From the NCBI GenBank assembly GCA_016719605.1, contig JADJYW010000029.1, forward strand, positions 260,612 through 324,611: a DNA stretch of 64,000 bases. The letters are read 5' to 3'. Shown one piece after another: positions 34,413-38,306 of the stretch (the stretch's first letter is position 1; every line of letters starts with the position of its first letter). The notes under the pieces are model-generated. The model was not told the DNA's origin. It ran no database searches and worked only from the letters and a program-made list of their open reading frames with translations. Both the position numbers and the translations under genes were made by a program. Source of the DNA: Lewinellaceae bacterium (GTDB taxonomy: Bacteria; Bacteroidota; Bacteroidia; Chitinophagales; Saprospiraceae).

Positions 34413-37400
34413 TTAGTTGACCTCCACATGGATTCCTACCAGCACCTCGTCTTCCAGTTCCACTTTTTCGCCGCCGTCCAGGGTGTCGGCCAAAACCAGA
34501 TCCGTAGCCAGCACCTCGGACTTGATGTAGTCGTGGAATTTTTCGACCGCATCCAACAAGGCAGGGTGACGCTCCAGCGTGACGATGACGCGGTCGGTCA
34601 CGTTGAAATTTTTGTCCTTGCGGATGTTCTGGATGCGGTTGACGAGGTCGCGCGCGGTGCCTTCGGCGAGCAGTTCGGGTGTCAACGTCACGTCCAGCGC
34701 CACCGTCAGTTCGCCAGCCGTAGCCGTTTTCCAGCCGGGCAAATCTTCTGTGCTCACGATCATGTCGTCCGGCGTGAGCGTGTAGGTATTGCCGTTGAGG
34801 ACGACTTCCAGTACGCCGGATTTTTCCAATGCACTGATTTCTTCGTTGGAGAAATTGGCGATCAGTGTTGCCGCATCTTTCATGTCCTTGCCGAGTTTGC
34901 CGCCGAGCGTTTTGAAATTTGCCTTGGCGCCTTTTTTCAGCAGGCCCGACGCATCGGTGATGTACTCGATTTGCTTCACGTTGATTTCCGACAGGATCAG
35001 GTCTTTCACGCCGTCCACTTCGGCGATGAACGCCTCGTCGAGCACCGGCAGCAGGATTTTTTGCAGGGGCAGGCGTACGCGCAGTTTTTCCTTTTTGCGG
35101 ATACTCAGCGCCAGCGAGCAAATGCGCTGGGCGTAGTCCATGCGTTTTTCCAGCGCCGCATCCACCTTGGCGGAATCGGGGAGGGTCAGGTCGGTGAGGT
35201 GTACGGAGTCGTGGCGCAGCGGGGTGTTGTGGGCTTTGGCCGCGTCTTTTATCGGTGCAGTCAGGTTGCGGTACAGCCAATCGGCGAAGTGCGGCGCGAC
35301 GGAAGCCATGAGTTGACCGGTCACCAGGAGACACTCGAATAAGGTCTGGTACGCGGCTAATTTGTCTTCCCCCATTTCGCCTTTCCAGAAACGCCGGCGC
35401 GAGAGGCGGACGAACCAGTTGGACAGGTGTTCGTCCACAAAATCCTCGATGGCGCGGCAGGCGCGGGTCACGTCGTAGTCGTCCATGGCCGCGTGGTAAT
35501 CGGCCACGAGCGAGTACAGTTTGGAGATGACCCAGCGGTCGAGCTCGGTGCGCTGGTGATAGGGCAGCACGTTTTGCTCATCCATTTTGAAGCCGTCGAG
35601 GTTGGCGTACAGGGCAAAGAAGTTGTAGGTGTTGTACAGGGTGCCGAACAGTTTGTTGCGCACCTCGGTGATGCCTTCTTCGTTGAATTTCAGGTTGTCC
35701 CACGGGTTGGCGTTGGCCATCATGTACCAGCGGGTAGCATCGGCGCCGTACTCTTCGATGGTCACGAAAGGGTCCACGACATTGCCCTTGGACTTGGACA
35801 TTTTGTTGCCTTCTTTGTCCAGTACGAGGCCGTTGGAGACCACGTTTTTGAAGGCCACCGAGTCGAATACCATCGTAGCGATGGCGTGCAGAGTGTAAAA
35901 CCAGCCGCGGGTTTGGTCCACGCCTTCGGCGATGAAGTCGGCCGGAAAGTTGTTTTTGAAAATTTCCTGATTTTCAAACGGGTAGTGCCACTGCGCGTAC
36001 GGCATGGAGCCGGAGTCAAACCAGACGTCAATCAAATCCAGTTCGCGGCGCATGGGTTTGCCGGAGGGAGAGACGAGGATGATATCGTCAATGTAGGGGC
36101 GGTGGAGATCAGCCTCACCCCCCGGCCCCCTCTCCAAAGGAGAGGGGGAGACGAAGAGTGAATCAGCCCTACTCTCCCCCTCTCCTTTGGAGAGGGGGCC
36201 GGGGGGTGAGGCAAGGACGCGGCGCAAATCGGTCAAAACATCATTTAACGCGTTCATTACTTGCTGATTCGCAAACCGAATTACCCGGAATCCGGCGCTA
36301 TTCAGATATGCTGTCCTCGCTTCATCAAATTCTTTTTGTTCGTCTCTATTGTGGTACTCGCCGTCCACTTCAACAACTAATTTTGCAGAAATGCATGCAA
36401 AGTCAGCGATAAAAGAACCAATCTGGTGTTGTCTGCGGAACTTGAAGCCATCCAGTTTTCGATTGCGAAGTGCTTGCCAAAGCACCTCTTCGGCTTCGGT
36501 CGGCGATTTTCGATTATCTCTGCCGTGTGTTTTTAAAATATGCCAGATTGTTTTATCGCCGGTAAATACGAATTGGGAAAGTGCATCTGCATGATCATCA
36601 TCCGATGAAACCCGAGTTTTGTACGGATTCTCCTGCATCAACCCTGCCGCCACTGCCTTCTCCACCTCTGCCCGCAACTGCTCCACCGACCCGATGCACA
36701 ACTCCTCTTCCGCATCCTCGGTGCGCCAGATGGGCAGCGGTACGCCCCAATACCGCGAGCGACTGAGGTTCCAGTCTTGCAGGTTTTCGAGCCATTGGCC
36801 GAAACGCCCGGTACCGGTGCTGGCGGGTTTCCAGTTGATGGTCTTGTTCAGTTCTGCCATGCGCTCTTTGGCCGCCGAGGCGCGTACAAACCAGGAATCG
36901 AGCGGGTAGTACAGCACAGGCTTGTCGGTGCGCCAGCAGTGGGGATAGGTGTGTTTGTATTTTTCGATTTTGAACGCCTTGTTATCCTCCTTCAGGCGCA
37001 GCGCGATGAGCAGGTCGGTGGGTTTGAAATCCTTGTCTTTTTGCACCTCGGCGGGGTAGTACTCGGACTTGACGAAGCGGCCGCCGAATTCCGGCACCTC
37101 GTCCACAAACTTGCCCTGCCGGTCCACGAGCGGAAAGGGTAGATCGGGCGCTTTTGGATTGGACAAGCCGATGAACGGCACGCCCGCAGCCTTGCTGGCC
37201 CGGAAGTCGTCGGCGCCAAAGTAGGGCGCCGTGTGCACCACGCCGGTACCATCCTCGGTGGTTACCCAGTCGCCGGGAATGACGCGGAAGGCATTGGCTT
37301 CCAGTTCGGGTGTGCTCGCGGCGGGTGTGGGCAGGAGTTGTTCGTACCGGATACCGACGAGGGCGCTGCCTGTGCGGTACGGCAGTTTTTTGTCGCCGAC

Positions 37401-38306
37401 CTTGAAACCGTCAAGCGGCTGCCCTTCATCTTCGGGATTAAAATAGGCTGCCATGCGCGACTTGGCCAGCACCACGCTCACCGGTTGGCCGGTGTAGGGG
37501 CTGACGGTTTGCACCTTGTGGTACTCAATGTTTGGCCCGACGGTGAGGGCTACATTGCTGGGGAGTGTCCAGGGTGTGGTTGTCCAGGCGAGGATGCGCA
37601 CGTCTTCGTCCTTGGCGTCGAACAGGTGCTCGGAAGCGGAATTCCGGACGACTTTGAACATGGCAACTGCCGAGAAGTCGGTGACCTCCTTGTAGGTGCC
37701 GGGCATGTTCAGTTCGTGGCTCGACAGGCCCGTACCCGCCGCCGGACTGAACGGCTGGATGGTGAAACCCTTGTACAGGTACGACTCGCCGGAGGGCGTT
37801 TTTTTATTGTACAATTGCTGGAGCAGCCACCAGACGGACTCGATGTAGTCGTTTTCAAAGGTGATGTACGGGTTGTCCAGATCCACCCAGTAGCCCATGC
37901 GGCGGGTCACGTCGTCCCAGAGGTCTTTGTAGCGCATGACCGTGGTGCGGCAGGCCTGGTTGTAGGCGTCCACGGAGATTTTTTTACCGATATCCTCTTT
38001 GGTGATTCCAAGTTCTTTTTCCACCTGAAGTTCGATGGGCAGGCCGTGGGTATCCCAGCCGCCCTTGCGCTCCACGCGGTAGCCCTGGAGGGTACGGTAC
38101 CGGCAGAAGAGGTCCTTTACCGTGCGGGCCATGACGTGGTGGATGCCGGGTTTGCCGTTGGCAGAGGGCGGACCTTCGTAAAACACGAAAGAGCGGTCGA
38201 CCGGTCGCTGGCTGATGGACTTTTCAAAAATCTTTTCGTCCTCCCAGAACTGGCGGATTTCGGCGTCTATGGAGGGGAGGTGGAGGTGTTTGAATTCGCG
38301 GTACAT
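34413..38306 (-). CDS. ileS: isoleucine-tRNA ligase (type 2) carrying an in-frame ~167-aa foreign insertion
   Basis: FYEGPPSANGKPGIHHVMARTVKD (HIGH region), a CP1 editing region, DLHRPYIDDIIL...VWFDSGSMPY, and NKMSKSKGN (KMSKS). A single 1297-codon ORF. Confidence 0.92.
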   Translation of the reverse strand: MYREFKHLHLPSIDAEIRQFWEDEKIFEKSISQRPVDRSFVFYEGPPSANGKPGIHHVMARTVKDLFCRYRTLQGYRVERKGGWDTHGLPIELQVEKELGITKEDIGKKISVDAYNQACRTTVMRYKDLWDDVTRRMGYWVDLDNPYITFENDYIESVWWLLQQLYNKKTPSGESYLYKGFTIQPFSPAAGTGLSSHELNMPGTYKEVTDFSAVAMFKVVRNSASEHLFDAKDEDVRILAWTTTPWTLPSNVALTVGPNIEYHKVQTVSPYTGQPVSVVLAKSRMAAYFNPEDEGQPLDGFKVGDKKLPYRTGSALVGIRYEQLLPTPAASTPELEANAFRVIPGDWVTTEDGTGVVHTAPYFGADDFRASKAAGVPFIGLSNPKAPDLPFPLVDRQGKFVDEVPEFGGRFVKSEYYPAEVQKDKDFKPTDLLIALRLKEDNKAFKIEKYKHTYPHCWRTDKPVLYYPLDSWFVRASAAKERMAELNKTINWKPASTGTGRFGQWLENLQDWNLSRSRYWGVPLPIWRTEDAEEELCIGSVEQLRAEVEKAVAAGLMQENPYKTRVSSDDDHADALSQFVFTGDKTIWHILKTHGRDNRKSPTEAEEVLWQALRNRKLDGFKFRRQHQIGSFIADFACISAKLVVEVDGEYHNRDEQKEFDEARTAYLNSAGFRVIRFANQQVMNALNDVLTDLRRVLASPPGPLSKGEGESRADSLFVSPSPLERGPGGEADLHRPYIDDIILVSPSGKPMRRELDLIDVWFDSGSMPYAQWHYPFENQEIFKNNFPADFIAEGVDQTRGWFYTLHAIATMVFDSVAFKNVVSNGLVLDKEGNKMSKSKGNVVDPFVTIEEYGADATRWYMMANANPWDNLKFNEEGITEVRNKLFGTLYNTYNFFALYANLDGFKMDEQNVLPYHQRTELDRWVISKLYSLVADYHAAMDDYDVTRACRAIEDFVDEHLSNWFVRLSRRRFWKGEMGEDKLAAYQTLFECLLVTGQLMASVAPHFADWLYRNLTAPIKDAAKAHNTPLRHDSVHLTDLTLPDSAKVDAALEKRMDYAQRICSLALSIRKKEKLRVRLPLQKILLPVLDEAFIAEVDGVKDLILSEINVKQIEYITDASGLLKKGAKANFKTLGGKLGKDMKDAATLIANFSNEEISALEKSGVLEVVLNGNTYTLTPDDMIVSTEDLPGWKTATAGELTVALDVTLTPELLAEGTARDLVNRIQNIRKDKNFNVTDRVIVTLERHPALLDAVEKFHDYIKSEVLATDLVLADTLDGGEKVELEDEVLVGIHVEVN
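36111..36612 (-). mobile_element. in-frame insertion in ileS: DUF559/Vsr-like endonuclease domain plus translated inverted-repeat pair
   Basis: The peptide PTEAEEVLWQALRNRKLDGFKFRRQHQIGSFIADFACISAKLVVEVDGEYHNRDEQKEFDEARTAYLNSAGFRVIRFANQQV matches the DUF559 family pattern. By hand count, G+C is 157/360 for 36241-36600 versus 111/180 for three flanking 60-nt lines. A perfect 37-bp inverted repeat lies at 36114-36150 / 36174-36210. Boundaries are approximate. Confidence 0.6.

Follow-up and report, generated by a model that had tools for sequence, protein, structure and literature searches.

A perfect inverted repeat inside the ileS gene of a Lewinellaceae bacterium is probably the terminal repeat of a DUF559 nuclease cassette that is translated with its host

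We analysed a perfect inverted repeat that lies inside ileS, the isoleucyl-tRNA synthetase (IleRS) gene of a Lewinellaceae bacterium (Bacteroidota; GenBank assembly GCA_016719605.1, contig JADJYW010000029.1), in a window of 64,000 nucleotides of that contig, whose first letter is position 1 throughout. The repeat is probably the terminal repeat, similar to repetitive extragenic palindromes (REPs) or MITEs (transposable elements of the miniature inverted-repeat kind), of an unspliced, homing-like cassette that carries a DUF559 nuclease and is translated through in ileS. Specifically, the inverted repeat would consist of two ~40-nt arms that face each other head to head as a complete pair and belong to a GC-rich, REP/MITE-like family of palindromes, and these arms would be the terminal repeats of cassettes encoding DUF559, a Vsr-like nuclease. 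The cassette, without a start or stop codon of its own, would be a selfish DNA element housed in one indel-tolerant surface loop of IleRS. Translation would run straight through it, without intron or intein removal, the nuclease becoming an extra IleRS domain and the repeat a disordered Pro/Gly/Ser linker that rejoins this domain to the enzyme.

The ileS open reading frame (ORF; 34413..38306, minus strand, 1297 codons) was identified from the ORF list and its translation, and a genome-wide protein search found no other IleRS gene in the assembly (5.63 Mb, 92.9% complete). Pfam matches on its product comprised tRNA-synthetase families (tRNA-synt_1, 1.7e-115; Anticodon_1; DUF5915) and DUF559, and MTES_1575, a related nuclease family, matched below threshold. 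The whole cassette (36111..36620, minus strand) covers 170 codons, residues 563-732, with coordinates confirmed by translation, and is absent from the empty ileS alleles of the same genus. Its boundaries read ...NPY/KTRV and ...GGEA/DLHR, the slash marking the junction. It starts with an N-terminal extension and junction (KTRVSSDDDHADALSQFVFTGDKTIWHIL; 36534..36620, minus strand) in which the alignment of cassettes of the same type (type A, below) showed no left arm, and continues with the DUF559 domain (36213..36533, minus strand, residues 592-698; PF04480, 5.4e-35), a Vsr-like PD-(D/E)XK nuclease with intact motifs. The insert matched PDB 3HRL (E = 8.7e-28), while the match to the mobile-intron nuclease 3R3P was only marginal (E = 0.36). 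The RRQ / DF / E-V-D-G..H motifs were retained in 49/49 DUF559 copies compared, and the substitution rates (dN 0.12-0.31, dS saturated) indicate, at the sequence level, that the nuclease is under purifying selection. The DUF559 family has been placed together with Vsr and the homing endonuclease I-Bth0305I (PMC3424549; PMC3239194), and a DUF559 protein causes in vivo DNA damage in Caulobacter (PMC12907096).

The repeat begins at the base right after the end of the Pfam DUF559 match. A repeat search placed its arms at 36112-36151 and 36173-36212 (no strand is assigned to the repeat or its parts), 40 nt each and 100% complementary, with 21 nt between them. The first-pass annotation, a model's reading of the bare sequence, had described a 37-bp pair extended by flanking gc; this was correct, and our search carried the pairing one base further inward. 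The palindrome that it had seen within each arm was likewise confirmed as a 10+10 hairpin, CCCCCTCTCC AAA GGAGAGGGGG, located at 36126..36148 in the distal arm and at 36176-36198 in its twin, with pairs that are invariant across orthologues. The proximal arm (36173..36212), which adjoins the nuclease, encodes ASPPGPLSKGEGE; the spacer or loop (36152..36172) measures 21 nt here and from 21 to ~60 nt among orthologous copies; and the distal arm (36112..36151) encodes SPSPLERGPGGEA and runs directly into DLHRPYID of IleRS. The chance expectation for the 23-mer core of the arm was 0.00 in 100 dinucleotide shuffles of the window, and the mRNA-sense strand was predicted to fold into a single long hairpin of -107.3 kcal/mol (z = -10.6 versus shuffles). 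The whole repeat lies inside the ileS ORF and reads ASPPGPLSKGEGESRADSLFVSPSPLERGPGGEA, with 0 stops in the ileS frame; candidate tryptic peptides across it are ADSLFVSPSPLER, which spans the junction, and GPGGEADLHRPYIDDIILVSPSGK. Since the element is palindromic, the same arm peptides appear in both orientations, and four of the six frames are open. Arms and spacer together form a short element with terminal inverted repeats and no coding capacity of its own, as in a MITE. A terminator and promoter scan found nothing at the repeat, which is therefore not an intrinsic terminator, and an Rfam E-value scan of 35800-36900 returned only sub-threshold matches to miRNA-like hairpins, such as any long hairpin gives.

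The corresponding site was compared across the genus (114 genomes). Empty sites hold 3-4 residues between the same anchors (...P-x-D/LHRP), while 22 genomes carry a DUF559 cassette there. Eight of these, including the present one, have type A, in which a complete arm pair comes after the nuclease (in G088, clusters of arms stand on either side), and 14 have type B, arranged as arm-nuclease-arm or with a full pair on each side (G009). The repeat had first been placed at the 3' boundary of the DUF559 block. That stands for this ileS insofar as a complete inverted arm pair, that is, a solo element, abuts the nuclease, but a simple boundary made of one repeat does not describe the relatives, where arms bracket the nuclease or a full pair stands on each side of it. 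The 22 ileS cassettes have 21 different lengths (507-810 nt), and all 22 are divisible by 3 and free of stops. The same applied to six of six inserts in the gene for methylmalonyl-CoA mutase (MCM), which contain arms only and measure 138-252 nt between fixed anchors. The suggestion that the open frame is under selection was thus borne out, and the frame is maintained in spite of the variation in length.

An AlphaFold model of IleRS residues 1-1100, built with a 61-sequence alignment (mean pLDDT 80.3), predicted a confident IleRS body and a confident DUF559 core, most 10-residue blocks of the core scoring 74-91 and one 68. Residues 565-582 and 702-730 scored below 50, the latter being the repeat-encoded segment between the two confident domains. 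This run superseded one on the insert alone without alignment (pLDDT 34.6). The repeat is probably tolerated in ileS because in-frame translation turns it into a floppy linker within a surface loop. A different view is that the insert is removed before the mature enzyme forms, either by arm-defined RNA excision (an RNase III-type cut followed by religation) or by a form of protein splicing that was not recognised. Type-B arms, which bracket the nuclease, would bring both ends together in the RNA, and in two genomes (G000 and G094) the frame of the helicase copy is interrupted immediately ahead of the nuclease. However, the arm pair of this ileS stands on one side of the nuclease only, Rfam yielded no match to an intron or ribozyme family, group I and group II introns included, and an intein was rejected, as Pfam detected no Hint domain and the boundaries have no Cys/Ser/Thr or His-Asn. 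Translational bypass was also considered and set aside. Removal would not demand an open downstream frame, and this was found in 22/22 inserts; an open frame would be pointless if the insert were taken out. Altogether, we give removal very little credence and favour a cassette that is translated through.

We then examined whether the arms are constrained as nucleic acid. When seven orthologous type-A hairpins were aligned, the 39-bp arm-to-arm pairing was 98.5% paired, and it fell to 64% when the partner was slid by one column. Covariation affected 8 of the 39 pairs, with 17 cells changed on both sides, a level that 0/500 shuffles reached. Similarly, type-B arms, although ~450-550 nt apart across the nuclease, were 95.1% paired and covaried (12 pairs, 45 cells changed on both sides; 0/500 shuffles). 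The first-pass annotation had offered two folds, a long hairpin and a double stem-loop. The covariation backs the long arm-to-arm pairing, while it speaks neither for nor against the local stem-loops: the 10-bp hairpins show no variation in their pairs and so are uninformative. In G063, both local hairpins contain a mismatch, and the long pairing compensates for it. Among type-A copies, identity at third codon positions was 0.89-0.91 in the arms and 0.43 in the nuclease core, so the constraint acts on nucleotides. The arms thus co-vary and are constrained at the nucleotide level. An assembly artefact, a chimeric palindromic join, can practically be dismissed: other homopolymer-linked frame breaks hint at indel errors in the assembly, but this architecture recurs at the identical codon in seven other genomes, and each of them has compensated variants of its own.

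These data also bear on whether the host keeps the hairpin for the expression of ileS, in which case its RNA structure would make ribosomes pause between domains or determine how stable the mRNA is. The predicted hairpin is very stable, its pairing is kept by covariation and it lies exactly at a domain boundary, all of which would suit such a role. Nevertheless, G-U pairs, which would be tolerable under RNA selection, accounted for only 1 of 269 paired cells, and this scarcity fits Watson-Crick complementarity of the DNA better than RNA selection alone. In addition, most ileS alleles of the genus have no hairpin, the same arms occur in unrelated genes and intergenic leaders, and the element is palindromic and in MCM is found in only some species. 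We therefore regard a host function of the RNA as improbable. The arms would rather work as DNA, serving as the element's ends or recognition structure, and they would stay complementary and near-invariant while neighbouring codons drift because of this role.

The link between arms and nuclease was seen well beyond this locus. This genome has two DUF559 copies and both adjoin arms. The first-pass annotation had proposed looking for the repeat next to other DUF559 genes, and the only other copy (C4:55622-55936), hosted by a superfamily-1 helicase gene, is indeed bracketed by arms of the sister subfamily, with a further arm pair 800 nt downstream. The reading frame of this helicase gene (G000:C4:54122-57436, L010), like that of G094:C54:99300-102700 (L202), is broken just upstream of the nuclease; in G000 a T run contains the first break, and the frame is lost again at a G11 run within a second arm pair, while in G005 and G016 the same helicase is one intact ORF of ~1300 codons. 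The breaks may reflect homopolymer errors of the assembly or a gene that is genuinely split. Arms are present in every one of the 22 complete ileS cassettes of the genus, and the same architecture was found in frame in the metH, helicase and type IIG restriction-modification genes of relatives. A search of 5.8 billion proteins revealed DUF559 embedded in IleRS, LeuRS, MetRS, MetH, UvrD, Lhr, HsdR, HsdM, MmeI-like enzymes and MCM. Arm-type peptides of the form LTPxPSPxxxG ... SPxPLxxGxGGE flanked the domain in 12/12 embedded DUF559 proteins sampled, which come from Bacteroidota, Nostoc and Aminicenantes and include LeuRS, MetRS, MetH, UvrD, Lhr, HsdR and MCM. A metagenomic LeuRS of 1330 aa (P0010) contains two separate DUF559 cassettes with arm peptides on both sides of each, and also a solo arm peptide near its C-terminal domain. 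Moreover, the nuclease clade tracks the arm subfamily, type A going with TCACCCCCC/CTCTCC and type B with CCACCCC/CTCCCC, and arm-DUF559-arm units exist, in which the same ends surround a candidate autonomous element.

Genome-wide analyses showed that the repeat belongs to a family. The full 37-mer proved unique in an exact search, and with up to 6 mismatches only the two ileS arms matched; a profile was therefore needed to find relatives. The profile, built from 16 arms, gave 67 nhmmer matches in the genome, corresponding to 17 inverted pairs and 13 singles at E < 0.1. The possibility raised beforehand, that a repeat confined to this locus would argue against a mobile family, thus did not materialise, and the REP/MITE-like interpretation was upheld in corrected form, with ~30 loci detected by profile and both DUF559 copies adjoining arms. 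The inner arm core alone occurs at six further sites on four contigs of this genome. Arms fall into two subfamilies, GCCTCACCCCC-nnn-CCCCTCTCC-AAA-GGAGAGGGG and CCCACCCCC-nnn-CCCCTCCCCC-AAAT-GGGAGGGGGG, and the other element copies in the genome are 89-348 nt long. Some arm copies are located in 5' or intergenic leaders, and others are internal to long ORFs whose frame is kept, namely those for MCM, for an HsdM methylase, for a hybrid kinase (in its receiver domain), for two T9SS proteins and for a protein with a SUMF1 domain. Insertions probably survive inside genes because the palindrome gives the same peptide either way and leaves most frames open. The arm-only insert in MCM was present in 6 of the 30 same-genus genomes examined, the other 24 keeping a short loop. 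Arm copies of one genome tend toward the same loop triplet, which points to spread within the genome.

Individual copies illustrate the diversity of sites. The MCM inserts (L157-L186) replace four ancestral codons, xGEG, before NLLA, and the resemblance of the arm terminus (GGTGAGGCC) to the replaced sequence (GGAGAAGGC) hints at microhomology-guided insertion. In a hybrid sensor kinase of 1442 codons, in-frame arms lie inside and just before the receiver domain (G000:C8:139409-139795), one copy falling between the conserved ...EALAVL and DLIISDIMMP segments. Two tandem (direct) arms, read in frame as SPLSPGSGAGGEASPLSPGRGAGGEA, precede a SUMF1/FGE-type domain in an ORF of 1130 codons (G000:C15:194445-194521). 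A 4-alpha-glucanotransferase-like ORF (L203, G041:C175:4000-7300) carries an arm-only pair read PPGPLSKGEGE...SLSPLERGPGGEA, nearly the same arm peptide as in the ileS studied here. The ileS of G045 has a second, arm-only pair (G045:C22:52747-52814) ~710 nt downstream of its cassette, with the same ATT/AAT loop triplet as the arms of that cassette.

Further conservation analyses addressed mobility at the ileS site. On a host ileS tree from which the insert and its flanks had been removed, type A, type B and empty alleles were interspersed, with at least 11 state changes, several of them forced by well-supported branches of this tree alone. Type-A nucleases formed one clade (98% support), and for G045 and G088 the branching within it conflicts with the host tree. 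Presence thus differs from species to species and does not agree with the host gene tree. Upstream of the site, ~12 residues read KAVAAGxMxxNP[FY] in the occupied class, a form also present in other Bacteroidota orders, and KANxxLGLxQxxPxD in the empty class. The present upstream flank (EKAVAAGLMQENPY; 36621..36662, minus strand) was assigned by this comparison to the class of occupied sites. Flank class followed occupancy and not the tree in 5-6 of 6 independent contrasts, and never went the opposite way. The sister genomes G045 and G006 share ~0.9 DNA identity up to the final 60-80 nt ahead of the insert, where it drops to 0.62. This flank pattern looks as if a short tract had been exchanged along with the cassette, or as if empty alleles were resistant. 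G007 combines an occupied-type flank with an apparent deletion scar. We propose that DUF559 would cut empty alleles or the arms, that the cassette would spread by homing-type gene conversion and that arm-only derivatives would spread by nuclease-dependent copying.

The loop also receives other sequences. G002 (L015, C108), the closest relative sampled (90-94% ileS identity), has an unrelated AT-rich segment at the same loop; this segment spans 119 residues from anchor to anchor and contains neither DUF559 nor arms, and the upstream flank is replaced too. G023 (L040) has a different insert of 98 residues at the same place. This IleRS loop is a general insertion hot spot. The architecture of DUF559 with arms also sits in frame in a second ileS loop, in members of Flavobacteriales, Bacteroidales and Chitinophagaceae (Winogradskyella, Psychroflexus, Galbibacter, Paludibacteraceae and a metagenome-assembled genome of Chitinophagaceae), where the arms are shorter, CCCC-AAA-GGGG.

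The main competitor of a nuclease cassette with its own ends is an independent MITE or REP that landed beside the DUF559 insert and is mobilised by another enzyme, the nuclease being uninvolved. Arm-only copies far outnumber nuclease genes, and in this ileS the nuclease lies outside the arm pair and not between the arms, both of which agree with independent mobility. The same can be said of two observations that weigh directly against our preferred interpretation: most free-standing DUF559 genes of the genus (9/14) have no arm match by profile, and genomes rich in arm cores without a type-A nuclease exist, for example G035 and G054. In contrast, adjacency was found in every embedded DUF559 examined, across genes and phyla, and the arm subfamily tracks the nuclease clade. 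Arm-core copies are also commoner in genomes with a type-A ileS cassette (9/10 genomes, against 24/104 elsewhere; medians of 8 and 0 further cores), a comparison whose naive Fisher p = 5e-5 ignores the relatedness of the genomes. Finally, the search for a REP-associated tyrosine transposase (RAYT) found none at the cut-off, the best PF01797 match in the genome reaching 18.3 bits, below the 23-bit threshold, and not lying near any arm. We thus consider an independent element unlikely, albeit the most serious of the alternatives.

Other points against the cassette interpretation should be taken into account. The occupied genomes on the ileS tree were picked by the feature itself, and kinship inflates every across-genome count. 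Sliding identity did not single out a donor for the flank tract of ~60-80 nt, and no target-site duplication is visible at the ileS or MCM junctions. A perfect 40-bp RNA duplex in an essential mRNA would be a good RNase III substrate. To our knowledge, DUF559 is not a known transposase, and both the nuclease-arm link and mobility are deduced from comparison of genomes, no transposition or homing event having been observed. Even so, a translated cassette with REP/MITE-like ends remains the reading that we judge probable.

A bolder proposal, which we put forward tentatively and consider somewhat less likely true than false, is that these cassettes constitute an undescribed class of selfish element. 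The arms would be its cis-acting ends, and a Vsr-like nuclease would persist as a translated internal domain of essential proteins, free of introns and inteins. The palindromic ends would encode disordered linkers that tolerate either orientation and most frames, while the nuclease, acting as a mismatch- or structure-specific nickase, would spread the cassette and its arm-only derivatives and keep the arms complementary. A literature search found no paper on DUF559 cassettes with palindromic arms in frame in housekeeping genes. If true, this would represent a third way for a nuclease-carrying selfish element to reside in an essential gene, besides self-splicing introns and inteins, in which the element just stays in the protein, cushioned by repeat-encoded linkers. 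It would explain the so far unexplained DUF559 in hundreds of IleRS, LeuRS, MetRS, MetH, helicase and restriction-enzyme database entries, and would give this large family a testable role. It would also flag loops of aminoacyl-tRNA synthetases that tolerate the insertion of a 170-residue domain, and would mean that the Rickettsia palindromic elements (RPEs) have a GC-rich counterpart in another bacterial group, with a candidate enzyme attached.

Comparison with known systems places the repeat between several of them. Fungal mitochondrial GC clusters and double-hairpin elements are likewise mobile GC-rich double hairpins that can sit in coding sequence; they differ in being organellar, and some are bypassed or removed, not translated. 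We know of no DUF559 partner for these elements. The closest parallels known to us would be RPEs and REP-RAYT units. Like the arms described here, RPEs (Ogata et al. 2000, via PMC10969869 and PMC3733652) are short palindromes inserted in frame into genes that are unrelated and often essential; translation makes additional peptide loops of them, and they vary in presence among related species. Unlike them, the present repeat is GC-rich, belongs to Bacteroidota and forms the ends of a nuclease cassette, whereas RPEs, in so far as these secondary accounts describe them, are not known to be associated with a nuclease gene, show no sequence relationship to it and belong to AT-rich Alphaproteobacteria. 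The hallmarks shared by RPEs and intragenic REPs, namely a repeated family, in-frame stop-free inserts and patchy presence at the same site, were all found here. As in REPs, bacterial interspersed mosaic elements (BIMEs) and REPtrons (PMC3733652), the units are GC-rich imperfect palindromes of ~35-40 nt found singly, in inverted pairs and in clusters, their copies are far more numerous than the enzyme gene and this gene is bracketed by inverted copies; as in intragenic REPs (PMC3733652), some copies lie inside ORFs, including tRNA synthetase genes. In contrast to REPtrons, the partner is a PD-(D/E)XK Vsr-like nuclease and not an HUH tyrosine transposase, and the enzyme is itself embedded in frame in host proteins. 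The arm ends, which begin GCCTCACCCC or CCCCACCCC, have neither the GTAG nor the CGTC tag by the definition in PMC3733652, and without this tetranucleotide and without a RAYT at the cut-off the family was not assigned to the REP-RAYT systems.

Stand-alone DUF559/Vsr-like endonucleases (PDB 3HRL; Caulobacter VsrA, PMC12907096) have the same domain with intact motifs, but they are separate small genes, whereas here the domain is internal to IleRS without its own start or stop. Homing endonuclease genes of inteins and group I introns (Vsr-fold EDxHD, I-Bth0305I; PMC3239194, PMC3424549) similarly combine a Vsr-like nuclease with fixed sites in conserved essential genes, a patchy distribution against the host tree and nuclease lineages tied to sites, and the ileS cassettes behave alike in forming site-specific lineages that are patchy and host-incongruent. 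They differ from homing endonucleases in that they have no self-splicing carrier, the insert stays part of the host protein, and the nuclease is flanked by palindromic arms.

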